Below are positions 1 to 53,328 of a stretch of DNA of 62,476 bases, piece by piece. The stretch's first letter is position 1. Each line of letters opens with the position of its first letter. Made by a program: the position numbers and the translations under genes. The notes beneath the pieces were generated by a model. That model saw only the letters and a program-made list of their open reading frames with translations. It was not told the origin of the DNA and did no database searches. Origin of the DNA: an uncultured virus (IMG/VR IMGVR_UViG_3300033076_001192) (lineage: Duplodnaviria > Heunggongvirae > Uroviricota > Caudoviricetes); the IMG/VR virus record IMGVR_UViG_3300033076_001192; one strand, 5' to 3'.

Positions 1-2158
1 GATGTATCCTTTTTATTTCATCTAATACTTCTTTAGGCTTAGTTTTTAATAGTTCTCCAAAACTATCCCAACCCTCACTTGTTGCAGATTGTTTTTTATA
101 TAGAGCTGGGTCTTCAAATTTACTACCAATTCTGATTCCTTCTTGTGCCATAGGCACTTCTTGTCCTTCCTCTGTAGGATTAGATAAATTACCTTCCATA
201 CTCTCTTCTTGCGGAGATTGTCCTTGTAGTTGATTAGCTACTTCTTGTATAGCTTGAACTGCTTGTTGCTCTGGTAAACCCATTTGAACTAATTGCTGTA
301 CAATCTGTTCTGGTGGTAAACCTTGTTGTAACATTTGAGTAACTACTTGGAAAACTTCTTGTACAGGGGCTACCTGACCACCTTCTTGTAATAGTTGGTA
401 AGCTCTGTCTAAAGATATATTATACTTTTTAGCTAACTCTTCTATTCTACCTCCTTCCTGATACAAAGAAGCTACCCTATTATTATTCATATCTAAACCT
501 TCTTTACCTTGCTGTTGTGTAGATAACATTTTTTGGTAAGATGAGGAAGGTAAAACTATATTGTTAAATGCATCATTGGTAATAAATTCTCTATCTGTAT
601 TAACATCGAATCCTTGTTCTGTTGGGTCTTTATAGTATAAATAATAACCGCTTCCAAGTTTTTCGTTTCTAACCCCTGATTGTACTTTTAAAAGTGGTTT
701 TAATACAGATTGTGAAGGACTAGGTATAACATCAGAAGGTCTATAATTTTTTGATTCTGTACCTGGTACTCTTTTGTTTATGTTTCCACCCCTGTTTATA
801 AATTCCTGATACTTATCTGTTGCTTTATATTTATCTAAACCTTCTTGAGTAACAAATTCTCTAGTTCCGTCAGAATTATAAATATAGTATCCTTTTCCTA
901 ATTTATCATTTGTTACACCTGATTGTATGTAATCGGCAACTTTATAATTAGAATTTATCTTACCTCCTTCTTGCATTACAGGGTTTCCGTTTTTATCTAA
1001 TACCTGAGTACCATCTCCTTTTTTAGGTATACTTTCTTGTATTTTAAATAAATGTTCAAAAAGTTTATTAGATGCAACTTCTAATTCTTTAAGTTTTTCT
1101 TCTGATTCTTTTATCTCATCATTTAAAAGATTCTCATTTAGTCTTTTTGTAGTAGCATCTTTTATTTTTTCTACATCTCCTAACTTTTTTATATATTTGG
1201 ATTGCTCTTCAATAATCTCAGTTTTACCTATTTTTTTCTCGTACTTTTCCATCACTTTAGCAAAAGTATCTTCTTTTTTTACAGATAGTTTATACTTCTC
1301 TTTTAATTCTTTTGCTGTTTTTGCTCCAATTTTTGTATAATTCGATAAAACTTCTGCATCTGTTAGATTTACTTCTACTCCTCCATCTTTATGAGTATCT
1401 CCTATAACTTTTTTTACTTCTGCTGTATTATTATCTTTTACATATTCATTTCCTTCTAACTCTACATTACCTTGTCCTTCGTCTACTATAAACTTACCAG
1501 TTAAATAATCTGCTTTCGATATAGTTCCTCCTTCTTGCGCCATTATAGGTCTAGGATTATTATCATAAAGAGCGTTACGCATATTATCGTACACTTTTTG
1601 GTTTTCTCTTTCTGTGGATAAACCTGATAAGAAACTTCTAGCTCCTCCTAATAAAACTTTACCAGCTCCTGCCACTCCTCTTAAAGCATTCCAACCTTTC
1701 TCATCTCCTTTATAACCAAAAGATTGACCTAAAGAATAAAGAGCTTGTTCTGTTGATACTCCTGAGAAAGGGTTAAATATATTATAATTAATATTATCAT
1801 TATATTTCACATTGTTATTTTCAGGATAATCAGAAGCCTCATTAGCAAAACTGTTATTTATATTAGTTCCGTAATTGGTAAGCATAGTGTTTTGTAAACT
1901 TCTTAATCTATCTTCTTCCGAAGGTGTGTAAAGACTGTTAAAATCTATATTAGTGGAAAAAGATAAATCTTTGTTTTTTGATTGTTGCGCAAACATTGGT
2001 GGATTATTATCATACCAACTTCCTCCTTGTTGCATTTTTTTATGCTCTTTTTCATACATAGAATAAGCTATTGCTATATTCTGTGCATGACTTCTACCTT
2101 TATTTTCTTTTTCTAATAATCTTATTTTTGCGGAAATCCACTCTTGTTTAGTTGTCAT
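1..2158 (-). CDS. Virion core/cargo-like protein with repeated xQEGG motifs (partial, runs off left edge)
   Basis: Not in the ORF track. Manual translation from ATG at 2158 gives MTTKQEWISAKIRLLEKENKGRSHAQNIAIAYSMYE...; frame confirmed at MQEGG (974) and MAQEG (149). Q/E-rich and downstream of the muzzle gene, as for crassvirus cargo genes. Confidence 0.7.
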   Translation of the reverse strand, partial: MTTKQEWISAKIRLLEKENKGRSHAQNIAIAYSMYEKEHKKMQQGGSWYDNNPPMFAQQSKNKDLSFSTNIDFNSLYTPSEEDRLRSLQNTMLTNYGTNINNSFANEASDYPENNNVKYNDNINYNIFNPFSGVSTEQALYSLGQSFGYKGDEKGWNALRGVAGAGKVLLGGARSFLSGLSTERENQKVYDNMRNALYDNNPRPIMAQEGGTISKADYLTGKFIVDEGQGNVELEGNEYVKDNNTAEVKKVIGDTHKDGGVEVNLTDAEVLSNYTKIGAKTAKELKEKYKLSVKKEDTFAKVMEKYEKKIGKTEIIEEQSKYIKKLGDVEKIKDATTKRLNENLLNDEIKESEEKLKELEVASNKLFEHLFKIQESIPKKGDGTQVLDKNGNPVMQEGGKINSNYKVADYIQSGVTNDKLGKGYYIYNSDGTREFVTQEGLDKYKATDKYQEFINRGGNINKRVPGTESKNYRPSDVIPSPSQSVLKPLLKVQSGVRNEKLGSGYYLYYKDPTEQGFDVNTDREFITNDAFNNIVLPSSSYQKMLSTQQQGKEGLDMNNNRVASLYQEGGRIEELAKKYNISLDRAYQLLQEGGQVAPVQEVFQVVTQMLQQGLPPEQIVQQLVQMGLPEQQAVQAIQEVANQLQGQSPQEESMEGNLSNPTEEGQEVPMAQEGIRIGSKFEDPALYKKQSATSEGWDSFGELLKTKPKEVLDEIKRIH

Positions 2159-36487: not shown

Positions 36488-36767
36488 TTATTTTTTTATA
36501 ACTTAATCTAATTAATATGTTTCTTATTATTTGATATACCTCTCTGTAAAAAAGACTTTGTGTGTTATATTCTTCTTCTACTTCAAAAGTTTTACAATCT
36601 ACAAATAATACTTTTAAAAAATCTTTTTTATATTTTACAAGTATTAAATAGTAATTATTATCCTTTAAAACTAAATAATTTTTATCATTTCTTATTACGT
36701 CTATGTTATAAGTATCCGACATAATTAAAAGATACTCAACTAACTTTTTTAAAAAACGTTTTTCCAT
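36480..36767 (-). CDS. Hypothetical protein
   Basis: First ORF after the minus-strand promoter. Confidence 0.55.
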   Translation of the reverse strand: MEKRFLKKLVEYLLIMSDTYNIDVIRNDKNYLVLKDNNYYLILVKYKKDFLKVLFVDCKTFEVEEEYNTQSLFYREVYQIIRNILIRLSYKKINE

Positions 36768-36775
36768 TTACAGTG

Positions 36776-36867
36776 CAAAGATATAAACAATATTTCAAAA
36801 AAGCAAAACATTTAACTAATATTTAACTTTATATATTTGTATAATTAAATTATTCTTTTTATTTTTG
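36776..36867. promoter_or_regulatory. Divergent Bacteroidota sigma-70 promoters at the strand switch
   Basis: Minus: TTTG-N20-TATCTTTG (36807-36776). Plus: TTTG-N20-TATTTTTG (36836-36867). Confidence 0.75.
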
Positions 36868-36878
36868 CAAAAAAAGTT

Positions 36879-37118
36879 ATGGAAAATAATAAATTAGGTA
36901 TTATAGAGTATCAAGAAGTTGTCATAGATAATATCTCTACTCTTATTTTAAATAAAGATTATATAGAAGAAAATAAAGATTTTTTTGATAATGTTCTTTA
37001 TAAAATGTATGAAATATATATAAATGACGTTAATGATTCGATATCTATACGTAAACAAGCTCAGTTTTTAGAAATATTTTTAGGTATGAATTTTAAATTT
37101 AAACTTTCAGATTATTAA
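36879..37118 (+). CDS. Hypothetical protein
   Basis: ORF directly after the promoter. Confidence 0.6.
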   Translation: MENNKLGIIEYQEVVIDNISTLILNKDYIEENKDFFDNVLYKMYEIYINDVNDSISIRKQAQFLEIFLGMNFKFKLSDY

Positions 37119-37133
37119 AGTTTTCTTAATAAG

Positions 37134-37165
37134 TTTGTATATTTAAAATAATTGTTTTATATTTG
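37134..37165 (+). promoter_or_regulatory. Sigma-70 promoter driving RNA island 1
   Basis: TTTG-N20-TATATTTG. Confidence 0.75.
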
Positions 37166-37171
37166 CACTAT

Positions 37172-37280
37172 AATACTGTTGAGTAGACTTTATAAATAGT
37201 TGGAAAACTATACTAAAAACGGTGATAGTCCGATAAGTCGTGGTAATAGAATTACTAATCTGCTTAGTTCCAACAGTATT
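37172..37280 (+). ncRNA. Putative ~110-nt structured RNA
   Basis: 10-bp terminal stem AATACTGTTG/CAACAGTATT with internal hairpins; starts at the expected TSS. Confidence 0.55.
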
Positions 37281-37288
37281 TTTTATAT

Positions 37289-37326
37289 TGCGCGGTAGAG
37301 CAGAGGTAGCTTGCGGGGCTCATAAT
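37289..37326 (+). pseudogene. 5' half of initiator tRNA-fMet(CAT), interrupted
   Basis: TGCGCGG-TA-GAGC-AGAGGTA-GCTT-G-CGGGG-CTCATAA with initiator hallmarks; no contiguous 3' half. Confidence 0.75.
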
Positions 37327-37339
37327 AATAAATAGTATT

Positions 37340-37768
37340 TTGAAAAAATGTAATTTTTGTTTAATTGAAAAACCCTTAGATAGATTTTCTAAAAAGAAAT
37401 CTTGTATAGATGGTTTTAATACAAAATGTAAAGATTGCCATAATAAATATAATAGAGAAATTTGGTATATTAAAAATAGAGACAAACAAAAAATGTCTTC
37501 TGTTAATTGGAAAATAGATAATAAAGATAGGATAAAAGCTACTAAATATGGAGTTACACCTGAAGATATAGTAGAATTTAGAATTTTACAAAATGATAAA
37601 TGTGCTATATGTTTAGCAGAAAATTTTACAGAAAATATAGACCATTGTCACAAAAAAGGTAACGTTAGAGGAATTCTATGTGGTAATTGTAATAAAGGTC
37701 TAGGTTTATTTAAAGATAATATTGAATATCTTTTAAATGCAATAAACTATTTAAATAATAACAACTAA
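37340..37768 (+). CDS. Endonuclease VII-like HNH homing endonuclease
   Basis: KYG, Q..KCAIC, IDHCHKKGNVRGILCGNCNKGLGLFKD; N-terminal Zn finger. Confidence 0.85.
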   Translation: MKKCNFCLIEKPLDRFSKKKSCIDGFNTKCKDCHNKYNREIWYIKNRDKQKMSSVNWKIDNKDRIKATKYGVTPEDIVEFRILQNDKCAICLAENFTENIDHCHKKGNVRGILCGNCNKGLGLFKDNIEYLLNAINYLNNNN

Positions 37769-37769
37769 G

Positions 37770-38085
37770 TTCATCCCGCATTTGCAGGAAGGAAATCGTG
37801 AATCGCAATATGCGTTTTGTGTAAATTTAAAAAGAGTCCCCTCATATACAGGTGCTAGAATACACTCAGGATGAGTAAGGTTATTTTAACTTTAGAATTG
37901 TAGGTTAACAATCCGTCCCTTATAATTCATTTAGCTTTTATAGTGGACGTTAAAAAAGACATATCGGAGTTTAAAAGTAGAAGTAGGAAGCTATGATTAA
38001 AACTAAAAAATAAACGCTTAAAAAAGCCTTTAAAACTGACAGCATCTTCCTACATAGTGCTGTTTTTGTTTTTTAGGCTTTTTAC
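37770..38085 (+). ncRNA. Putative structured RNA/leader upstream of the polymerase-like gene
   Basis: Stems TTCATCC/GGATGAG, CGCAT-TTGC/GCAA-ATGCG, CGTCC-TTATAA/TTATAG-GGACG; long hairpin 38021-38083. Confidence 0.45.
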
Positions 38086-38092
38086 TTTTATA

Positions 38093-39436
38093 ATGACTAA
38101 AATAATAAATACTTTTGTAACATTACCTCCAAAATTAATAGAGGATTTTGAAAAAATTCCGTTTTCTAAAATAGAACGTAATTACGCTCTAAAATTTATA
38201 GACAACTTAATGAAAAGGTCTTTTAGAGAGTATGGCATGATTGATGGTTTTGTTGAAACTCCTAAGAATTATTTTAGAAAGGTTTTTAACTCTCAATATC
38301 TTATTTGGTTAAATAAATTAATTGACGCAAAAATTATCATTTCTAATCTATCTTATTCTAACTCTATCTCTAATATATATTCTAAATCCTATTCTATAAA
38401 TACTAAATACACATCTATCCCTATTATGTGGCTCACTTTTGATGAAAACCCTTTAAAATCAATACCTTACACTTTCAAAATTAGCAAAGAAACAGAAGAT
38501 GAGAAATTAGACCTTCAAAGAGTAGTTGAAGATTTAAATGTTATAAAAGTAGATAGAAAAGTATTAATGCAGTTAGCTTCAAACGAAATAGAAAAAGTTA
38601 AAATAGAGGATTTTAAAACTAATGAGTTTGTAACAAGGGAGAGTTTTAATGTGTCTTTTGGGGGAGATAAAAAATATTGGATGTCAAGACAAAAAGCTAT
38701 TCAGAAAAGTGTAGAGTTAAATAAAACACTAATACAAGATGACAATAAGTTTTATATTATTGATGAGTATGAATTTATACTAAGAAAAAAGACAGCTATG
38801 GTTCAATCTTATCAAGACGCTATAAATAAACTGATAAATAAAAAATTCTATGGTAAAAGAAATTCTACAAATAGTAGGTTAGATACTAATCTTACTAATA
38901 TGGCTAAAGTACTTACAAAAGAAGTATGTATTAAAAATAATTTTGTTCAGTTTGATTTGTGTAATTCACAGTTCGCTATTTTATCTGACCTGTTAGAAAA
39001 TAAATTATCCACTGATGATTTTTTACATTTTAAAACACACTCTTATAATGGAACTCTTTATGAGTATATAATGCAAGAATTGAAATTAGAAACAAGATTA
39101 GAGGCTAAAAAAATGATGTTTGAATTAATGTTTTCAAAAGAGGAATATAGAAGTGGATTAAAAGATAAATTAAAATCTATATTTCCGTCTGTAGTTGAAG
39201 TTGTAGATAATTATAAAAAAGAAAATGGGTATAATAAATTTTCAATAAGTTTGCAACAAAGAGAGTCTGAAATTTTTATCGACGGTTTATGGAAACAAAT
39301 AAAGAAAAAGAAAATATTTTGCACCCCTAAACATGACTGTCTAATAGTTAAAGAAAAGGATGCAACTAAGGTAGAAAATATTATAAAAAAGTATTTTGAA
39401 AAAATCAATTTTAAAGGTAAAATAATTAGAGAATAA
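38093..39436 (+). CDS. Compact family-A-polymerase-like protein (no visible exonuclease domain)
   Basis: RLDTNLTNM, motif A FDLCNSQFAIL, motif B R.EAKKMMF, LQQRES, motif C HDCLIV. ATG 38093 preferred to GTG 38057. Confidence 0.6.
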   Translation: MTKIINTFVTLPPKLIEDFEKIPFSKIERNYALKFIDNLMKRSFREYGMIDGFVETPKNYFRKVFNSQYLIWLNKLIDAKIIISNLSYSNSISNIYSKSYSINTKYTSIPIMWLTFDENPLKSIPYTFKISKETEDEKLDLQRVVEDLNVIKVDRKVLMQLASNEIEKVKIEDFKTNEFVTRESFNVSFGGDKKYWMSRQKAIQKSVELNKTLIQDDNKFYIIDEYEFILRKKTAMVQSYQDAINKLINKKFYGKRNSTNSRLDTNLTNMAKVLTKEVCIKNNFVQFDLCNSQFAILSDLLENKLSTDDFLHFKTHSYNGTLYEYIMQELKLETRLEAKKMMFELMFSKEEYRSGLKDKLKSIFPSVVEVVDNYKKENGYNKFSISLQQRESEIFIDGLWKQIKKKKIFCTPKHDCLIVKEKDATKVENIIKKYFEKINFKGKIIRE

Positions 39437-39468
39437 TTTGTATAATTAAAAATAATGTTTTATCTTTG
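39437..39468 (+). promoter_or_regulatory. Sigma-70 promoter
   Basis: TTTG-N20-TATCTTTG. Confidence 0.75.
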
Positions 39469-39484
39469 TAAGATAAATATAAAA

Positions 39485-39655
39485 ATGGAAGAAAAAATAT
39501 ATCCTTTATATTACAAAGGAAAGTTTTGGACTGAAGAAGAAGTTGATGATATATTTAAATCTTTTTACTTTACAAAACTAGCTTTAGATTATCGGACATC
39601 TGTTTATGTAGGAGATGGTCTTAGAAGAACTCCCGATGGGGAATGGGTTGAATAA
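39485..39655 (+). CDS. Small hypothetical protein
   Basis: In-frame ATG (MEEKIYP) downstream of the promoter. Confidence 0.55.
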   Translation: MEEKIYPLYYKGKFWTEEEVDDIFKSFYFTKLALDYRTSVYVGDGLRRTPDGEWVE

Positions 39656-39662
39656 AAAAATT

Positions 39663-41093
39663 ATGAGTTATACATTAAGACCAAGACAAAAAATTGCAGT
39701 AGATAAAATAGACAGTTTTATTACAAATTCAAAAAATAATCATGGGATATTTGTTTACCCTACAAGTTTTGGAAAGTCACTTGTAATTGCTAATATTGCA
39801 TCAAAGTATCCTGAAAAATATTTTATAAATGTTACAAACAGTAAAGAGCTTTTGAAACAGAATTATGAGAAATACACTTCTTATGGATTTGAAGCTAATA
39901 TATGTTCTGCATCTTTGGGGGAAGTTGGAGTCGGAAAAGTAACTTTTGCAACGATAGGTACTGTAGTTAAATTTGTAGACTTCTTTAAGGATAAAGATGT
40001 AATTATATTAGATGATGAGTGTCAAGAAGGAAGTGCTTTAGGTTCACAATTACACAGTTTTGTAAAACAATTAAAAAATTACAAATTAGTTGGAGTAACA
40101 GCAACACCTTTTAGATTATCTCAAGGAATGGAAGGTACATCATTAAAAATGATGAATAGAGATAGAAAATGTATTTATAAATCTATTGAAGATGTTGTAC
40201 AAATTTCAGAAGTAGTTGAACAAAGCTATTGGTCAAAAATTATATATGATGTAAAAAATGTCGACGAAGACGATTTAAAACTTAACACTTCAGGTACAGA
40301 ATTTACAGATGAGTCAGTTCAAAAGTTTAAAGAAGTTAATGATATTAACAATAGACTTATAGAAGAAATTCAGGATTTAATTAGTAAAGGTAGAAAATCA
40401 ATTTTAGTATCAGTTCCTTTTATATCAGATGCACAAGAAATTTCATCAAAATTAGACGTTTGTAAGGCTGTTTACAGTGGTATGGACACAAAGGATAGAG
40501 ATAAGATAATTAATGACTTTAAATCGTTAAAATTAAAAGTAGTTGTTCAGTGTAGAATTTTATCTGTTGGGTTTGACCACCCTGAATTAGATGCTATTAT
40601 TATGGCTAAACCCACAAACTCTTTAACTTTTTATTATCAGTATTTAGGTCGCGGAGTTAGAGTACACCCTAGTAAAAAAAATTGTGTAGTTGTAGATTTA
40701 AGTGGTAATTTTAGAAGATTTGGTAAAATTGAAACATTAAGTATAGAAAATAGTGACTTAACTAAAGGTTGGGCAGTATTTAATGAAGATATGCTTTTAA
40801 GTAATTACCCTTTAAATACAAATAACAGACCTACAAAGAAAAGTCTTTTAGCTAAATTAAAAAGAGAGCAAGATAAAACAAGTCTAAATGAAGAAGACGC
40901 GTTATTTTATTTTGGAAAATATAAAGATAAAAAAGTGTCGGATGTAATGAAGGAAAATAAATCTTACCTCACATGGCTTTTAGACCAAAAAGATTTTAAT
41001 TGGTATGGAGAAAATGGAAGAAAGTTAAAACAAAGTATTCAAAAACAATTAGGGGTATTTTTGAACAAGAAGAAAAAGAATATACTAAAATAG
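39663..41093 (+). CDS. Superfamily 2 helicase (RadD/UvsW-like)
   Basis: LRPRQ, PTSFGKS, DECQ, TATPFR, GFDHPELD, QYLGRGVR; C-terminal FGKYK domain. Confidence 0.9.
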   Translation: MSYTLRPRQKIAVDKIDSFITNSKNNHGIFVYPTSFGKSLVIANIASKYPEKYFINVTNSKELLKQNYEKYTSYGFEANICSASLGEVGVGKVTFATIGTVVKFVDFFKDKDVIILDDECQEGSALGSQLHSFVKQLKNYKLVGVTATPFRLSQGMEGTSLKMMNRDRKCIYKSIEDVVQISEVVEQSYWSKIIYDVKNVDEDDLKLNTSGTEFTDESVQKFKEVNDINNRLIEEIQDLISKGRKSILVSVPFISDAQEISSKLDVCKAVYSGMDTKDRDKIINDFKSLKLKVVVQCRILSVGFDHPELDAIIMAKPTNSLTFYYQYLGRGVRVHPSKKNCVVVDLSGNFRRFGKIETLSIENSDLTKGWAVFNEDMLLSNYPLNTNNRPTKKSLLAKLKREQDKTSLNEEDALFYFGKYKDKKVSDVMKENKSYLTWLLDQKDFNWYGENGRKLKQSIQKQLGVFLNKKKKNILK

Positions 41094-41227
41094 GTTTTGG
41101 AAAATATTCTCAAATGACAACTATTGAACTTGTAGCAAATGATAAACGCTATGCAAAATGGTTGTATGAAAATTGCTCGGACGATATAATAAAAAAAGAA
41201 CTAAAGCAATTATTAAAAATAAAATAA
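41000..41227 (+). CDS. Second FGKY-domain, likely the -1 frame continuation of the helicase
   Basis: IGFGKYSQMTT.EL...DKRYAKWL resembles the helicase C-terminal repeat; no convincing own start. Confidence 0.5.
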   Translation: MVWRKWKKVKTKYSKTIRGIFEQEEKEYTKIGFGKYSQMTTIELVANDKRYAKWLYENCSDDIIKKELKQLLKIK

Positions 41228-41594: not shown

Positions 41595-41662
41595 CCTTAA
41601 AAAGCTATAAAATACATTTATAGTTAAAATAAGATATAATAATGTTAAATAAATACTAAAAA

Positions 41663-41698: not shown

Positions 41699-42088
41699 AT
41701 GATTAGAAAATATAGTAAAAAAGGTTTAGAAAAACGTAAACTAGAAAGAGAGTGTCTCTCTGAGTTTTTTATACGACATATAAATAAAATAAAAACAGAA
41801 AAATTATGTTGTGTAAACTGTGAAGAAAAGCTAAAAGGAGATGTATCAGAAGTGTGCCACAGGTTGCCAAAATCTACTTTCAAATCAATACAATGTGATG
41901 ATGATAACGCAGTTTATTTAGGTGGAAGATTTAGTAATTGTGGTTGTCATTCTTTATATGATGGTACAAACGAGCAACTTCAATCTTTAAATATTTTTGC
42001 ATCAGAAAAAGAGATAGTAAAAGAATTATTAGAAAAAGTAACAGAAAAATATAATTGGAAAATTTTAGAGCGGTGGATGATAGAATAG
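41699..42088 (+). CDS. HNH-like (NinG/Rap-like) nuclease
   Basis: CVNC...CHRLPKS...N...CH..YD. Confidence 0.55.
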   Translation: MIRKYSKKGLEKRKLERECLSEFFIRHINKIKTEKLCCVNCEEKLKGDVSEVCHRLPKSTFKSIQCDDDNAVYLGGRFSNCGCHSLYDGTNEQLQSLNIFASEKEIVKELLEKVTEKYNWKILERWMIE

Positions 42089-42855
42089 ATAATAAACATA
42101 TACTAAAAGCTAAAGAAAGGTTGGGTAAAATTTTTATTTCGACTCAAGGATTAGCTATGGAAATTATTGATTATGTAGACTCAATGAATTGTTCTGTAAA
42201 ATTTGAAGATGGAACTATTGTTAACAATTTACAATATAATCAAATAAAAGTAGGGTATGTAAAAAACCCATTTTTTGCCTCAACTTATGGACAAGGTTAT
42301 ATTGGAATAGGAAATAATATAACTCATATAAAGGGTAAAAAAGTAAAAGCTTATTCTAAGTGGGTTGGTATGTTAGAGAGATGTTACTCTGAAAAATATC
42401 ATGTTAAAAACCCAATTTATAAAGAGTGTGCCGTATCTAATGAGTGGAAATGCTTTCAAAATTTTGCAGAATGGTTTAACTTAAATTATAACCCTAACTT
42501 TATGTTTGATTGGGAATTAGATAAAGACATTTTAGTAAAAGGTAATAAAGTTTACAGCTCTGAAACCTGTTGTTTTGTACCTAAAGAGATAAACATGCTA
42601 CTATCTTTTAATAAAAATAAAGAACGTGAATTACCACTAGGAGTTTCAAAACATAAAGACCTTTATAAAGTTTATTGCAGAGTAAACAATAAAAATAAAT
42701 TTTTAGGTTTGTTTAGCACTCCTGAAGAAGCTTTCCAAGCATATAAAACTGAAAAAGAAGCTTATATTAAAGAAGTAGCTGATAAATATGAAAATTTAAT
42801 CAGTCAAAAAGTATACAAATCATTATATAATTATAAAATAGAAATAACAGATTAA
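42055..42855 (+). CDS. Homing endonuclease (HNH-type with AP2-like C-terminus)
   Basis: W.GMLERCY, W..FQNFAEW, LDKDIL..GNKVYS.ETCCFVP, LPLGV, LG.F.TPEEAF.AYK. Confidence 0.8.
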   Translation: MENFRAVDDRIDNKHILKAKERLGKIFISTQGLAMEIIDYVDSMNCSVKFEDGTIVNNLQYNQIKVGYVKNPFFASTYGQGYIGIGNNITHIKGKKVKAYSKWVGMLERCYSEKYHVKNPIYKECAVSNEWKCFQNFAEWFNLNYNPNFMFDWELDKDILVKGNKVYSSETCCFVPKEINMLLSFNKNKERELPLGVSKHKDLYKVYCRVNNKNKFLGLFSTPEEAFQAYKTEKEAYIKEVADKYENLISQKVYKSLYNYKIEITD

Positions 42856-44881: not shown

Positions 44882-45115
44882 ATGGAGAACATTAATACAA
44901 TAAAGTTTTTTATATTCATTATAATATTATTTTCAATTATTACTGCAATTTTAATAAATAGCTTAGTAGCTGGTTATAAATTAAAAGAGCAAAAATTGAC
45001 CCTTATAATAGATGAAATACTTAAAGAAAATCACGAATTAAAAGTATATAAAGCTAAAAAAGAATTCAGTGCTAAAACAATCAATAAACTAAAAAATGCA
45101 ACCAAAGAAAAGTAA
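44882..45115 (+). CDS. Small membrane protein
   Basis: N-terminal TM helix. Confidence 0.55.
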   Translation: MENINTIKFFIFIIILFSIITAILINSLVAGYKLKEQKLTLIIDEILKENHELKVYKAKKEFSAKTINKLKNATKEK

Positions 45116-45509
45116 AACTGAAAAAGCAATATGGACTTATCAAGGCAAAAAAGATTTTGAAGTCCCTGAATCAGCAATAGGGTTTGTATATAGAATAGAT
45201 GTAATTGGAACTCCTTTTTATTACTATGGAAAAAAGAATTTAACTTCTACTCGTGGGCGGGGGAAAAAGAAAGTAACAAAAGAATCAACTTGGAGAACTT
45301 ACGAATCCTCATCTAAAGAGATTAAAGAACTTATAAAGGCGGGTAAAAAAATAAAAAAAGAGATACTTGAATTTGCATATAGTAAAAGTGAATTAACACT
45401 TTTAGAAACAAAATACATAGTCTGTAATAACTGCATAGAAGATGAGAACTCTTTGAACAGATGGATTTATTGCAGGGTATATCAGAAACATGTTTTAGCA
45501 GGAAAATAA
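45096..45509 (+). CDS. GIY-YIG family nuclease
   Basis: GFVYRI...YYYGKK, WRTYESS, KEIL..., LE, N.WI. Confidence 0.7.
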   Translation: MQPKKSKTEKAIWTYQGKKDFEVPESAIGFVYRIDVIGTPFYYYGKKNLTSTRGRGKKKVTKESTWRTYESSSKEIKELIKAGKKIKKEILEFAYSKSELTLLETKYIVCNNCIEDENSLNRWIYCRVYQKHVLAGK

Positions 45510-46287: not shown

Positions 46288-46941
46288 ATGGTTTATTTTG
46301 TAAAAGCAGGGGATTATATAAAAATAGGATATAGTAAAAATGAAAAAGCTTTTAAAACAAGATTATCTTCTTATAAAACAAGTTGTCCATTTGAAGTTGA
46401 AGTATTAGGTACTTTAGATGGCGGAGTTGAAGAAGAAAGGAATATAATGAATTATTTTATAAAATTTCACACAAGGGGTGAGTGGTTCAATTACGATGAG
46501 AGTATTGAAAATTTTGCAAAGAACCCTTACGAAATACCAAAATCTAATTACTTAAAACCTCTACACAGCACAAATAAAAAAGTAGATGAAAACATAGAGG
46601 AAATATTAAAACTATACAAGGAGGGAGTATCATTAAGAGTTATAGAAGATATTTTTAAAATAAGTAGAAAAAGATTAACAAAGTATATACCTGACGACCT
46701 AAGAAGGGCTAAGAATGAGTGGTTTAGATTAAGAAGACAGGAGACAAATCCAAAAAATATTCCTATAATTTGTATAACAACAGGAGAGAAGTTTATAAGT
46801 ACTGCTGAAGCAAGTAGAAAATTAGGAGTGACTCATGGTTGTATATGGAGAGTTTTAAATGGTAAAAGAGCTCATACTAAAGGATTAGTTTTTATGTACT
46901 ATAGTGATTTTTTAGAAAAAGAAGAAAATAATCCAAAATAA
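46288..46941 (+). CDS. GIY-YIG (T5orf172-like) homing endonuclease with NUMOD1-like HTH
   Basis: VYF...IKIGYS, RL..., RGEWF; C-terminal F.S..EASRKLG...I...L.GKR..TKG..F.Y. Confidence 0.8.
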   Translation: MVYFVKAGDYIKIGYSKNEKAFKTRLSSYKTSCPFEVEVLGTLDGGVEEERNIMNYFIKFHTRGEWFNYDESIENFAKNPYEIPKSNYLKPLHSTNKKVDENIEEILKLYKEGVSLRVIEDIFKISRKRLTKYIPDDLRRAKNEWFRLRRQETNPKNIPIICITTGEKFISTAEASRKLGVTHGCIWRVLNGKRAHTKGLVFMYYSDFLEKEENNPK

Positions 46942-46942
46942 A

Positions 46943-46974
46943 TTTGCATAATTAAAAAATAGTTTGTATATTTG
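46943..46974 (+). promoter_or_regulatory. Sigma-70 promoter driving RNA island 2
   Basis: TTTG-N20-TATATTTG. Confidence 0.75.
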
Positions 46975-47107
46975 CAGAAGAAATAAGAAGAGAACTATTA
47001 AATACACCTTAGTTGGTAGTAAATAGTAAACGTCATACTTCTTATTTTTTCTGTTTATTTAACTTTTTGGCGGAAAATAATTAAATCAAAGATTTACAGA
47101 AGGAAAA

Positions 47108-47301
47108 GCGGGCTTATCTACGATTGTAGCTTTAAAAGGGAGTAGAGGGTTTAATTAATTAACGGTTAAACAACCCTTAGAATAGTATTCTTTGGCTGAC
47201 CTCTATTGCGTGTGTAACAGTGCGTGTTAAAGGAGGTTTATTAAAATGTGTTGCTTTAAAAGTGCGTCAAAGAAAGATTAGATAGTAACGTAAGATACCG
47301 C
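47108..47301 (+). ncRNA. Putative ~195-nt multi-stem RNA
   Basis: Closing stem GCGG..TATCT.ACG/CGT.AGATA.CCGC; inner stems TTCTTTGGC/GTCAAAGAA and ACCTCT/GGAGGT. Confidence 0.5.
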
Positions 47302-47392
47302 CTGATACAACACAAAATAAAAGGTGCTACTCGCTGTCGATATTCGGCAGTATTAGGATTGTAGTTAAATGGTAGTTCATTTAGCCTTTGGT

Positions 47393-47520
47393 TAGGTTTG
47401 TTGGCGAGTATTCCGTTCGATTCGGGTTAGTTTGGAACTGTGTGGTTCGAGTCCACGTTAAAAAAGTTGGCATCAAATAGGAAGATATTCCGCTCAGAGG
47501 TTCGACTCCTCTAAACCTAC
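47393..47520 (+). ncRNA. tRNA-like RNA with three T-loop hairpins
   Basis: Acceptor-like TAGGTTT/AAACCTA, canonical T-arm AGAGG-TTCGACT-CCTCT, and two further GTTCGA hairpins. Confidence 0.55.
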
Positions 47521-47600
47521 AAAATATAGTTGTAACAAATGCCTGTACTAAAATGTGCACTAAAAATCAGGGATGTGTCGGTAATGACGTACCATAAAGA

Positions 47601-47674
47601 GGTTCTTTAGCTCAGTTGGTTAGAGCATCTGACTCATAATCAGAAGGTCACAGGTTCAAGACCTGTAAGAACCA
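47601..47674 (+). tRNA. tRNA with CAT anticodon (elongator Met or Ile2)
   Basis: Full cloverleaf GGTTCTT/AAGAACC, GCTC/GAGC, TCTGA-CTCATAA-TCAGA, ACAGG-TTCAAGA-CCTGT; CCA not encoded. Confidence 0.93.
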
Positions 47675-47825
47675 CAACATTCACTTGATTCTCTTATAGT
47701 AAAGTGAAGGACATCGGAGTCAAGAGAGCTCTCGGATGGAGCGTCATGCTACGAAAAGCATGTGAGGGTACGGAAGAGCAGACGTGTATACCAAGTGCAA
47801 CCCCTCATTTTTAAATTATTAAATT

Positions 47826-48038
47826 ATGATGAACTTTTATTATGACCCTGTCTTAGGACTACGGTACGATTCTTTAGGAGAATTATTTATTATTGATTTA
47901 GATTGCATTCCTCAAGATATTAAATTTGATACAGAATATTGGATAAAGTATATTAAACAAACTAGTGTTCAAATAGTAAAACCTTTCTCTGAGTCATGTG
48001 TACAAATTGTCGGACAAATAACACAATATAAATTATGA
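47826..48038 (+). CDS. Hypothetical protein
   Basis: ORF track. Confidence 0.55.
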   Translation: MMNFYYDPVLGLRYDSLGELFIIDLDCIPQDIKFDTEYWIKYIKQTSVQIVKPFSESCVQIVGQITQYKL

Positions 48039-50165: not shown

Positions 50166-51053
50166 ATGAGGAAGTTACAACAAACAAGATTACATAATCC
50201 ACCTGTAATATTAGGTAATTGTTTTCCAACTGTTATAGCTTGCTTTTTAGACTTAAATTCTCCTGAAGATGTTATTCAAATTCAGGAGAAATATGAAGAA
50301 GATGATTGGAATGAGCAGTTGCAAAAATGGCTTTTAGAAAAAGGATGGGAGTGGAAAAAATTAAGTGGACATTTATTTGATAATTCTTATTATTTAGTTA
50401 TTGGAAAAACAAATAGAGGTAGTGCAAGTCATGTATGTATTTATCAAAATGGAGAACTTTATCACGACCCAAACCCATCTAATGATGGTTTAATAACAGA
50501 GGATTATTTTGAAATATTAATAGAGAAAAAGAAGATATGTTTTAAGTGTAATATTGAGAGACCTTTGTCTGAGTATTATAATCACAAACAAATGAGTGAT
50601 GGTCGATTAAATAAATGTAAGACATGCACTAAGAAAGATTCTAAGTTACAAACAGATATAAACACATCAACTCCTGAGGGTTTAGAAAAGGAAAGAGCAA
50701 GACATAGAGATAAATACCATAGACTTAGTTACAAAGAACAGCAAAAGGAATGGGATAGAGATAAACCTTGGAAAAATACAAATACTTATAAAGGTCTAAG
50801 AAAAAAATATTATAAGGATTTACCAAGAGAATTTGAACTGCATCATTGGAATTACAATGATGAGTATTTAGAGGATGTTTTTATTCTTAATGTAAAAGAA
50901 CATAAAAATTTACATAATGATTTATTCTTAGATTTAGAAAAAAGAATATTTTATTTAGAGGATGGAACATACTTAGACACAAAAGAAAAGCACAAAAATT
51001 ACATTAAAAAACTAAATATAAAAATAATTAATGACACAAGAAAAAGAATATAA
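50166..51053 (+). CDS. Fusion of a Cys-His-Asp domain with a Zn-finger/HNH-like domain
   Basis: GNCF...HVCIY...HDP; then C..C...DG.LN.CK.C and ELHHWNY...H..LH. Confidence 0.5.
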   Translation: MRKLQQTRLHNPPVILGNCFPTVIACFLDLNSPEDVIQIQEKYEEDDWNEQLQKWLLEKGWEWKKLSGHLFDNSYYLVIGKTNRGSASHVCIYQNGELYHDPNPSNDGLITEDYFEILIEKKKICFKCNIERPLSEYYNHKQMSDGRLNKCKTCTKKDSKLQTDINTSTPEGLEKERARHRDKYHRLSYKEQQKEWDRDKPWKNTNTYKGLRKKYYKDLPREFELHHWNYNDEYLEDVFILNVKEHKNLHNDLFLDLEKRIFYLEDGTYLDTKEKHKNYIKKLNIKIINDTRKRI

Positions 51054-51553: not shown

Positions 51554-51752
51554 AGAAAAAGAATTAGAGTCCTTGTATAATACATTATTAGAAAATGATG
51601 AATTATACGTCATGTTTGACGGGATGAAAGGGGAATGGGAAAAAGATAAAAAGAGATTTATTGAGGAGCAAATAAAACTAGAGAATACTGCTCAAGAATT
51701 AACAGCAAATTATTATAAAATAATAGAAGATTTACACGAAGAAGATGAATAA
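51543..51752 (+). CDS. Hypothetical protein
   Basis: ORF track. Confidence 0.55.
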   Translation: MKNREKELESLYNTLLENDELYVMFDGMKGEWEKDKKRFIEEQIKLENTAQELTANYYKIIEDLHEEDE

Positions 51753-53328
51753 TGTACAAATAAAAGATTTAGATGAGCTTTATAATGGTTTTTTACATAC
51801 TTGTAATGCAGTTTCTGAAACTTTAGGAGCAGAAGGTAAATTAGCTGTTTTAGAACATGTTGACCCTACAATGCCTCCTACAGTTACAAAAGATGGTGTG
51901 TCGGTAGCTTCTCATATTAGATTTACAAATAGAGTAAACAATTTTGGAGCTATTTTAGCTAGACAAGTGGCTGCAAAAACTTTAGAAAAATCTGGAGATA
52001 GTACAACAACGTCTTTAGTTTTATCTAAAGCGTTTTTAAATAATTTTCCAAACAAAAAAAAGTATAATAAAGCTGTTGAAAGAGGGATAGATATCGCTTA
52101 TAAAGAGGTGTTAGAGCATTTAAAAAATTATTCTCAATCTATAACAACTGATACATTAGAAAGAATTGCTGTTATTTCTGCTAATAATGATGAATACCTT
52201 GGAAAACTTATAGTAGAAGCTTATGAAGCTGTTGGTGGTGTGCATGGTATTGTAGAGGTTAAAAAAAATAGAGAAAGTAATGAAACTACCCTTTCTAAAC
52301 AAAAAGGTATGAAGATTGATAAAGGATATCACTCTCCTTTTTTTATTAACAATCAACAATCTGTAACTTGGGAAGCTGAGAATGTTTTAATAGCTGTTTT
52401 AGAAACATGGGTATCAGATAGTAATATTAAAACTTTTATACGAGATAATAGATACGATAAAGATGGAAAATTACAACCTATACTTTTAGTAATGGAAAAA
52501 ACTGAGGATATAGATTTTGTAATGGATTTAGAAAAATTTGCTAAAATGAATCTTTATAATATTTGTCTTATTACTACCCCAGATTTAGAAAAATTTAAAA
52601 AACTAAATCATTTAAGTGATATTGCTACTTATACGGAAGCTGAAATATATCAACCAAATCAAGAGGAGTTTGTCGAAATAAAACCAGGAAAAGCAGATTC
52701 GGTGATAGTTAATAGTGAAAGTACTGTTATTATAAGAAAAAATATAACCGAAGACACTAAAAAATTAATATCTAATCTTAAAAAACAGTTAAAAGTTACT
52801 AAAGAAGAAGATTTTTTAAGAAAAAGAATTCAAAGACTAGAAGGTGTAAGTTGTATTATCAATGTAGGCGGTTATACAGATAGTGAATTGGATGAAAGGT
52901 TTGATAGAGTAGATGATAGTTTAAAATCTGTAAAATCTTCTATTGAGGAGGGTTGGATTGTAGGAGGAGGAAGTGGATTGGTTTATATTTCTGGTCTTAT
53001 GAACAATAAGTTTAAAAACGCAGATGAGCAATTAGGATATGACCTTGTAAAAGAAGTTATAAAAGAGCCTTTTAAACAAATATTAAAAAATGCAAATAGA
53101 AAAGAACCTACTTTTTTAGAAAAAACTTTTAAAAGAAAATCTGGATATATTGAACACTCTTTAAAAGAATACGGAATAGGTTATAATGCAAAAACAGATA
53201 AAATTAGTAACCTTATAGAGGATGGTGTTATAGACTCTACAAAATCTATTAGGGTTGCTTTTGATAATGCCAAATCGATGGCTGAAAAACTTTTAAATAT
53301 TGGAGTTGTAGTCTGCCAAAGCAGTTAA
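51745..53328 (+). CDS. groEL: GroEL-like chaperonin
   Basis: AVSETLG, TKDGVSVA, GDSTTT, ISANND, GM.IDKGY.SPFF, EEG.IVGGG, GVIDS.K. Confidence 0.92.
   Translation: MNNVQIKDLDELYNGFLHTCNAVSETLGAEGKLAVLEHVDPTMPPTVTKDGVSVASHIRFTNRVNNFGAILARQVAAKTLEKSGDSTTTSLVLSKAFLNNFPNKKKYNKAVERGIDIAYKEVLEHLKNYSQSITTDTLERIAVISANNDEYLGKLIVEAYEAVGGVHGIVEVKKNRESNETTLSKQKGMKIDKGYHSPFFINNQQSVTWEAENVLIAVLETWVSDSNIKTFIRDNRYDKDGKLQPILLVMEKTEDIDFVMDLEKFAKMNLYNICLITTPDLEKFKKLNHLSDIATYTEAEIYQPNQEEFVEIKPGKADSVIVNSESTVIIRKNITEDTKKLISNLKKQLKVTKEEDFLRKRIQRLEGVSCIINVGGYTDSELDERFDRVDDSLKSVKSSIEEGWIVGGGSGLVYISGLMNNKFKNADEQLGYDLVKEVIKEPFKQILKNANRKEPTFLEKTFKRKSGYIEHSLKEYGIGYNAKTDKISNLIEDGVIDSTKSIRVAFDNAKSMAEKLLNIGVVVCQSS

Follow-up and report, generated by a model that had tools for sequence, protein, structure and literature searches.

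A putative primase-polymerase and a probable tRNA-cluster remnant behind one early promoter of an uncultured phage

Introduction

The TV-Pol primase-polymerases were predicted by Iyer, Abhiman and Aravind in 2008, with core features that comprise an Arg in a beta-hairpin, two Asp and an RxxxK motif, and with Bacteroidetes named among their hosts (PMC2579912). Primase activity was shown biochemically in 2020 for CcPol-MP of the SCCmec elements, and excerpts of that report describe CcPol without MP as capable of primer extension only (PMC7581432). Extra, divergent PolA proteins called divPolA1 and divPolA2 occur in Caudoviricetes and are considered possible repair enzymes in the excerpted account (PMC11348598). 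Here we describe a 447-amino-acid (aa) protein that is probably a DNA-replication starter enzyme of the kind predicted in 2008. It is encoded on a stretch of 62,476 nucleotides (nt) from an uncultured virus of the Caudoviricetes (IMG/VR record IMGVR_UViG_3300033076_001192). This whole stretch, which comes from a phage of Bacteroidota, is called the window below, and statements on replication-gene content refer to it.

The gene for the 447-aa protein closes a segment (37134 to 39436) that a first-pass annotation had speculatively read as a self-contained RNA-linked unit of an undescribed kind, laid out like a retron or a DRT system. The kind of enzyme had already been described, through the prediction of 2008 and the biochemistry of 2020, and we now think it probable, though well short of certain, that two unrelated things lie behind one promoter, namely a predicted primase-polymerase and the remnant of a tRNA cluster that was hit by a homing endonuclease. 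A homing-endonuclease gene inside a tRNA cluster has a precedent in segB of phage T4, as the excerpted report presents it (PMC2330249).

Fold and active site of the 447-aa protein

Sequence searches with the 447-aa protein against Pfam, PHROGs, NCBIfam and PDB returned nothing meaningful. Its AlphaFold model (pLDDT 92.1, pTM 0.86) gave 46 Foldseek matches at E <= 1e-3, and all among the matches listed are A-family DNA polymerases, including the Bst, Klenow, Taq, T7, apicoplast, M. smegmatis and Aquifex enzymes. In VIA-align, model residues 132-447 matched A-family polymerases, among them the Klenow, Taq, T7 and apicoplast enzymes, with Z of 12.5-14.1; the alignment to 5dkt, for example, covers 249 residues with a root-mean-square deviation of 4.0. 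A 3'-5' exonuclease domain was found neither among the structural matches of residues 1-131 nor in a Pfam scan of the protein. Model, Foldseek and VIA thus agree, and at the level of predicted structure they confirm the first-pass description of a minimal family A-type polymerase without 3'-5' exonuclease; the fold check on 38093-39436 by Foldseek returned a polymerase fold, and not a non-polymerase one.

The first 131 residues form a domain of their own, which reached a pLDDT of 82 when modelled alone. Its best structural matches are winged-helix domains, led by that of ORC2 (Z 6.8) and followed by those of CodY, Rpa2, Cdc6 and proteins of the MarR/ArsR type. Because no match to residues 1-131 reaches a Z of 8 and none was returned by Foldseek at E <= 1e-3, we call this domain a probable winged helix and no more than that.

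In an alignment of 56 family sequences, N260, R262, T268, D288, Q293, Y323, K339, Q388, E391, H414 and D415 are invariant, and two further positions are nearly so (R335 in 52 of 56, F347 in 55 of 56). We take D288, R335-K339-F347 and H414-D415 to represent motifs A, B and C, a placement made by the sequence pattern of Pol I. R262 sits in a beta-hairpin of the model (strands E254-256 and E263-265). Pol I enzymes carry a steric-gate Glu five residues past the motif-A Asp, and the corresponding residue here, Q293, is Gln in all 56 sequences. With an invariant Gln at the steric-gate position, the choice between deoxyribonucleotides and ribonucleotides cannot be read from the sequence.

The polymerase family and its neighbourhoods

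The 447-aa protein belongs to a very large family, with 1200 cluster representatives (50% identity) at E <= 1e-3 in an exhaustive search and 202 at E <= 1e-30. A word-indexed search returned 112 related proteins, whose source names, where given, are just "hypothetical protein"; some of them (P0012, P0015, P0019 and others) are 74-83% identical to the 447-aa protein. No Pfam or NCBIfam model matched any of the 56 family sequences scanned, and the one PHROG that did, in 8 of the 56, is the uncharacterised phrog_4756. A scan of viral contigs with the single 447-aa sequence found zero relatives and a scan with the family alignment found 19, at identities of 41% or less; tblastn of the 447-aa protein gave matches in three uncultured huge phages only. 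Two incomplete viral records with a family member, at 47% and 55% completeness, were searched with Pfam DNA_pol_A and showed no canonical PolA. Species-representative genomes contributed 67 loci, about 62 of them from Bacteroidota according to the record titles, mainly Flavobacterium and its kin.

Bacterial neighbourhoods were surveyed at 20 loci, in which 89 of the 145 neighbouring open reading frames (ORFs) were scanned with Pfam. A resolvase-domain protein lies near the polymerase in six of these loci, restriction-modification or BREX genes occur in five, and a weak tyrosine integrase match was seen in one; at three of the six resolvase loci (L147, L151 and L165) a large serine recombinase follows the polymerase immediately. 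Among the scanned ORFs there was no other polymerase, primase or replicative-helicase family, and SNF2/DEAD-type helicases were present in some loci. Metagenomic loci showed the same mix of neighbours (81 of 84 ORFs scanned with Pfam). In another branch of the family, four loci (L027, L037, L042 and L050) encode mutually related proteins of 65-72 aa directly after the polymerase, with DNA methylases after the small gene in L027, L042 and L050; from its sequence we read this small protein as an Xre-type helix-turn-helix protein, which would be a restriction-modification controller rather than a polymerase partner.

A different small protein marks the phage clade. A protein of 56-63 aa, in which 13 residues are invariant, directly follows the polymerase in the window and in 9 of 180 loci (L002, L003, L004, L014, L015, L082, L083, L084 and L088), whose polymerases are 33-90% identical to that of the window. 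No further copy of this small protein turned up in the 180 loci or with the 259 family proteins, none of the 259 is a fusion of the two, and an ESM Atlas search with the 56-aa protein of the window gave no usable match. Further downstream of the polymerase comes RecA (in L003, L004, L015 and others) or an SF2 helicase (in the window, L002 and L012), and a helicase lies downstream of the polymerase in L016 as well. The order of polymerase, 56-aa gene and then RecA or helicase is kept throughout the clade. The 56-aa and helicase genes overlap in the window; in L002 they are separated by about 700 extra bases (1853-2597) with a 150-aa ORF that matches no Pfam family.

The window itself is A+T-rich, with structural genes, including terminase and portal, on the minus strand (2-34141) and the early and replication genes on the plus strand from 36879 onwards. 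Among named phages it is closest to two Cellulophaga phages of 145 kilobases (kb), phi4:1 and phi17:2, which share 33% identity with it in the terminase and 46% in the helicase. The polymerase of the phage clade is preceded by a small ORF, beyond which the genes run on the opposite strand, and it is therefore the first early gene beside a divergent switch.

A replication starter or another kind of polymerase

The features of the family fit the predicted TV-Pol primase-polymerases, and a replication-starting role, which the first-pass annotation had raised next to an RNA-primed one, is plausible; the RNA-primed version finds no support. In the mechanism that we infer, the enzyme would bind DNA close to the divergent early promoters by way of its winged helix, and its polymerase core would start new chains and extend them briefly. 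Replication, or recombination-dependent replication, would then also involve three products of downstream genes, namely the 56-aa protein, the helicase of SF2 and the RecA-like protein.

Several observations weigh against this assignment, beginning with the middling structural support for the winged helix. The 56-aa protein has no recognised fold, and polymerase and 56-aa gene are not obviously one operon because the promoter at 39437 stands between them. Phage phi4:1 carries a canonical PolA at another genome site (Pfam DNA_pol_A) and no member of the winged-helix polymerase family, which would accordingly be dispensable in some phages of the group. No sequence link to a named TV-Pol turned up: at E <= 1 the family profile had no match in Microcystis phage Ma-LMM01 or phi4:1, nor in one phage each with divPolA1 (MW353176) and divPolA2 (MG592441). 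Furthermore, hhalign of the profile against 64 ORFs of at least 250 aa, from Ma-LMM01 loci and the canonical-PolA locus of phi4:1, gave probabilities of 3% or less, a comparison too weak to decide the matter since no ORF of the phi4:1 PolA locus was among the 12 best targets.

The gene might instead encode an accessory, primer-dependent DNA polymerase that serves repair, translesion synthesis or recombination-associated synthesis and does no priming. The canonical PolA of phi4:1-type phages and the RecA genes that adjoin in many loci would suit such an enzyme, as would the excerpted findings that CcPol alone extends primers only (PMC7581432) and that divergent extra PolAs are possible repair enzymes (PMC11348598). 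An accessory role would not be expected, however, of the first early gene by a divergent promoter region, encoding a polymerase fused to a predicted DNA-binding domain, and the ORFs scanned around the family members of bacterial mobile elements include no other polymerase, primase or replicative-helicase family. We regard the accessory role as unlikely, though as one to be taken seriously.

A single-subunit RNA polymerase of the T7 or mitochondrial type, with a winged helix that recognises the promoters of some phage genes, is suggested by one of the three nearest ESM-Atlas clusters, which is automatically named "DNA-directed RNA polymerase family protein" (score 0.97), and by the invariant Gln, instead of Glu, at the steric-gate position of Pol I. 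Yet the structural matches listed are DNA polymerases and include no RNA polymerase, and matches to the host-type promoter pattern (see below) are also present on the minus strand, within the structural genes. The context, with helicase and RecA neighbours in phages or mobile-element recombinases in bacteria, points to replication, and an RNA polymerase is improbable.

The half tRNA and the endonuclease gene

According to the explanation that we favour, the non-coding sequence upstream of the polymerase would be the remains of a tRNA gene cluster. The tRNA fragment noticed in the first-pass annotation consists of an acceptor 5' strand, a D arm, an anticodon 5' strand and the loop CTCATAA. Against the first 38 nt of a phi4:1 tRNA-Met, which has a 1:72 mismatch, 30 of 36 aligned bases are identical by hand count, and the fragment was thus rightly described as the 5' half of an initiator-like tRNA-Met. 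ARAGORN and Rfam, including its truncated mode, did not call it, which is unsurprising for half a tRNA. No matching 3' half, second copy or direct repeat of it was found in the window, and it is probably a pseudogene. The gene that starts 14 nt past the half tRNA was likewise correctly assigned to the EndoVII/HNH nucleases (Table 1).

Neither part is shared by the relatives of the polymerase. The endonuclease has a homologue in none of the 100 related loci searched, blastn found no counterpart of the half tRNA in 81 related loci, and default ARAGORN found no tRNA in the phage-clade loci. In L003, L004 and L014, which have the same gene order, orf79 is followed by non-coding sequence and then by the polymerase, with no HNH gene in between. 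The proposal of a self-contained unit is not borne out by these comparisons.

The closest relative, L002, indicates what may have happened. Its polymerase is 90% identical to that of the window, and its contig, which begins 292 nt upstream of the polymerase, carries a whole tRNA-Met(cat)-like gene (-2..73; ARAGORN, 80% threshold) that ends exactly at the position of the HNH stop in the window; a conserved block follows immediately after the tRNA-Met-like gene in L002. Since L002 has a whole tRNA gene in this place and homology resumes at the HNH stop, the HNH gene would be an insertion and the half tRNA its leftover. In phi4:1 (NC_021788) the syntenic slot before the helicase holds an array of 23 tRNAs, two of them tRNA-Met. 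The gene in the window combines a nuclease domain, a sporadic distribution among relatives and a site at a tRNA remnant, as free-standing homing-endonuclease genes do, and the simplest reading of the sequence is a homing-endonuclease insertion into a tRNA cluster. The EndoVII/HNH gene would have landed in the anticodon loop of the initiator-like tRNA-Met, replaced the remainder and left a dead 5' half. A point against this simple history is that the half tRNA agrees with the tRNA of L002 at only about 60% of positions (hand count); they may be different genes of the array, and for that reason the exact deletion cannot be reconstructed.

Two other origins of the half tRNA were considered and rejected. 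For a group I intron in a tRNA, Rfam gave no intron at E <= 10, the window has no 3' exon, and homology to L002 resumes at the HNH stop. A split tRNA with its second half at a distance would need a partner such as the T-arm-like sites at 47444 and 47499, but these are parts of degenerate tRNA-like elements that lack a matching acceptor or anticodon strand. These sites lie in a second long non-coding region (46943-47826), which has the same type of promoter ahead of it. About 10 kb downstream of the half tRNA, this region contains one good tRNA-Met (47601-47675), two degenerate tRNA-like elements that overlap (47385-47465 and 47426-47521, found by ARAGORN at the 90% threshold only) and, after the tRNA-Met, about 150 nt of G+C-rich sequence.

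The half tRNA could also be the attachment-site scar of a tRNA-targeting integrative element that brought the polymerase, an idea to which the serine recombinases beside bacterial relatives lend some weight. The window has neither a matching 3' half nor a direct repeat, however, nor is a recombinase nearby. The break coincides instead with the HNH gene, whose stop is the point where L002 homology resumes, and the polymerase, the 56-aa gene and RecA or helicase are syntenic throughout the phage clade, all of which makes an attachment-site origin very improbable.

The leader of the polymerase gene

The non-coding sequence had been described as folded in two blocks, and this holds for one part of it. 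The first block folds no better than chance (37166-37339: z -0.58, with 59 of 200 shuffles as good; 37169-37290: z -1.71), and blastn of it against 81 loci gave promoter-like matches only. The second block, taken whole, is borderline (z -1.85, 2 of 100 shuffles as good), while the last 96 nt before the polymerase ATG are strongly folded (z -5.34, 0 of 200 shuffles as good). The G+C content of the two blocks (0.30-0.34) exceeds that of the coding sequence on either side (0.19-0.27), and Rfam found no RNA family in the region upstream of the polymerase.

Within the first block, 42 nt (37194-37235) resemble positions 336-377 of bacterial 23S rRNA (Rfam LSU, 21.5 bits), at an E of 4.5e-5 that applies to a 177-nt search and becomes about 0.02 when scaled to the whole window. 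The stems are altered yet still paired, and the motif recurs neither in the window nor in 100 loci; the resemblance could be due to chance or could represent a small rRNA mimic.

Conservation upstream of the polymerase, which the first-pass annotation had expected of an RNA element and of the tRNA fragment alike, was seen in some relatives for a hairpin and a short element and was not found for the half tRNA. A hairpin of the same kind stands in the same place in L002 (z -4.7), L003 (z -3.7) and L004 (z -4.5), in each case with 0 of 200 shuffles as good. In L015, L082 and L084 the 96 nt before the ATG are not significantly better folded than shuffles (z -2.0, -1.3 and -0.9). RNAalifold on the 120 nt before the ATG gave 21 pairs, 8 of them with changes on both sides, and a covariation term of +0.6, which is unsupportive; the alignment is poor, and for these reasons the claim goes no further than a similar hairpin at a matching position, as judged from single-sequence folds. 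A simple terminator scan of 36700-41200 reported no site, the terminator-like hairpin at 38021-38083 included. A 44-nt element further upstream is about 80% identical in L014 and L004, where it lies just past the promoter, at the 5' end of the polymerase transcript; its fold energy is unremarkable (z -0.8 to -1.8).

Length and content of the upstream sequence vary among relatives. Only about 90-120 nt separate the small upstream ORF from that of the polymerase in L015, L082 and L088, and the leader measures about 185-440 nt in L003, L004 and L014, where promoters were read by eye, versus about 930 nt in the window, HNH gene included. The 44-nt element and the hairpin may tune expression of the polymerase. 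A bolder scheme would place the start of phage replication by the winged-helix polymerase within the leader of its gene. The 44-nt element would be the docking site of the winged helix, and transcription from the 37134 promoter would halt at the hairpin 38021-38083 and yield an RNA that primes synthesis or opens an R-loop, which would couple expression to origin firing. In this scheme the 56-aa protein would act as a primase cofactor of a new, non-OB kind. We give the scheme very little chance.

The least probable reading of all is that of an RNA-primed or RNA-guided DNA-synthesis module of the retron or DRT type, made of promoter, small RNA, tRNA half, nuclease, structured RNA and polymerase: the single consensus promoter ahead of the whole stretch, the G+C-enriched blocks and the conserved element and strong hairpin of the leader speak for it, but the enzyme has the family A fold and not that of a reverse transcriptase, the endonuclease is missing from the 100 loci searched and the half tRNA from the 81, default ARAGORN finds no tRNA in the phage-clade loci, the upstream gap is about 90-120 nt in L015, L082 and L088, the 96 nt before the ATG are not significantly folded in L015, L082 and L084, the first block is not folded beyond chance, and Rfam finds no family in the region.

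Early promoters and other features of the window

The promoters at 37134-37165 and 39437 were placed correctly by the first-pass annotation, and both are exact matches to the pattern TTTG-N17-21-TAnnTTTG, the Bacteroidota -33/-7 consensus. This pattern has 17 matches in the window, where 4.44 +/- 1.92 would be expected; 0 of 100 shuffles had as many. There is no further plus-strand match between these two promoters. Near-identical copies of a promoter repeat, family D1, lie at 36831, 37129, 39432 and 46938, and a repeat copy at 41658 belongs to an overlapping family, D2. Five early promoters of near-identical sequence, TTTG(T/C)ATAATT...TATATTTG, are found at 36836, 37134, 39437, 46943 and 48878, and their similarity suggests a single, tightly co-regulated early class.

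The early region has further HNH or homing-endonuclease-like genes (42055-42855, 45096-45509, 46288-46941 and 50166-51053), and by sequence the window phage appears rich in insertions of this type. A GroEL-like chaperonin gene lies at 51745-53328 (phrog_5725, 2e-95).

Table 1. Features between the polymerase promoter and the helicase gene, in positions of the window
Feature	Position	Strand	Evidence or remarks
Promoter TTTG ... TAtaTTTG, Bacteroidota type	37134..37165	+	Exact pattern match; repeat family D1
First non-coding block	37166..37288	+	Closing stem plus T-run at end; no relatives; fold not significant
Truncated tRNA, 5' half (positions 1-38) of initiator-like tRNA-Met	37289..37325	+	Alignment A5 (also used for both hand counts)
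Free-standing EndoVII/HNH endonuclease gene, 142 aa	37340..37768	+	PF02945 (Endonuclease_7) 2e-20; phrog_2633 2e-32
Block conserved with L002, two small hairpins	37766..37826	+	blastn 49 nt, 94% identity, E 3.8e-15; alignment A2
Conserved leader element, CGTCC...GGACGTTAAAA hairpin	37914..37955	+	blastn 79.5% over 44 nt, E 0.001; alignment A7
Long terminator-like hairpin and U-run	38021..38083	+	10 nt upstream of polymerase ATG
Gene for 447-aa protein	38093-39436	+	Start codon 38093 backed by alignment with L002
Probable N-terminal winged-helix domain, residues 1-131	38093..38485	+	Structural matches of model
Family A polymerase domain (thumb, palm, fingers), residues 132-447	38486..39436	+	Model, Foldseek and VIA
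Next promoter, same family	39437..39468	+	Exact pattern match; repeat family D1
56-aa protein, no known family	39485..39655	+	Conserved directly 3' of polymerase in phage clade
SF2 helicase: ResIII, Helicase_C, ExoX-like C-terminal domains	39615..41093	+	Pfam and PHROG; 46% identity to phi4:1 gp079

Comparison with known systems

Should the 447-aa protein prove to be a primase-polymerase, replication in many mobile elements and phages of Bacteroidota would begin with an enzyme outside the two textbook primase families, and a new small cofactor would be contributed by the phage clade. The function of this very large family is a prediction. The locus also illustrates that a suggestive fragment beside a polymerase can be a mere scar of a homing-endonuclease insertion. 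The literature search, made in a limited collection, found no description of the Bacteroidota winged-helix form.

Retrons and DRT systems differ from this locus in that its enzyme has the family A fold, not that of a reverse transcriptase, and in that the sequence upstream of it varies in length and content among relatives. The tRNA remnant is better compared with the array of phi4:1, which occupies the same slot, between the divergent gene switch and the SF2 helicase, and contains a tRNA-Met that aligns with the half tRNA; phi4:1 has 23 tRNAs and no member of the polymerase family, whereas the window keeps one half tRNA at this slot. T4 SegB, as described in the excerpted report (PMC2330249), resembles the EndoVII/HNH enzyme in being encoded among tRNA genes and in occurring sporadically in related phages. 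SegB is a GIY-YIG enzyme, however, and the putative insertion in the window would have destroyed a tRNA gene.

Like the divPolA1 and divPolA2 genes, as far as the excerpts of their description go (PMC11348598), the gene in the window is an extra PolA-like gene of a phage, with the palm intact and no active exonuclease. divPolA2 likewise has an N-terminal globular domain, an unrelated one, and divPolA1 Flavobacterium phages carry GroEL, as the window does.

The likeness to TV-Pol (PMC2579912) extends to the minimal family A core without nuclease domains, to the residues kept in the family (R262 in the beta-hairpin, D288 and D415, and R335-x3-K339) and to an additional N-terminal globular domain, which a subset of TV-Pol proteins has. 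It also extends to the setting, which is viral or is a mobile element equipped with a resolvase or integrase, in regions rich in restriction-modification genes, or next to a helicase. The N-terminal domain was predicted to be all-helical in TV-Pol, in contrast to the winged helix with strands modelled here, and the D5-like helicase of TV-Pol is not present, the helicase here being of SF2.

The gene order recalls that of CcPol-MP and Cch2 in the excerpted reports (PMC7581432, PMC10061031), where a polymerase-only A-family protein is followed by a small protein of no known family and then by a helicase, and the large serine recombinases that adjoin the bacterial relatives are a further likeness to SCCmec. 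MP has a predicted OB fold; the putative partner here is a protein of only 56 aa with no recognised fold, and in the window a promoter sits between the polymerase and the small gene. The CcPol-MP and PolA-SSB proteins, so far as these accounts describe them, come from Bacillota; the winged-helix family belongs to Bacteroidota and their phages. The CcPol-MP primase is the sole tested analogue of the winged-helix polymerase family.

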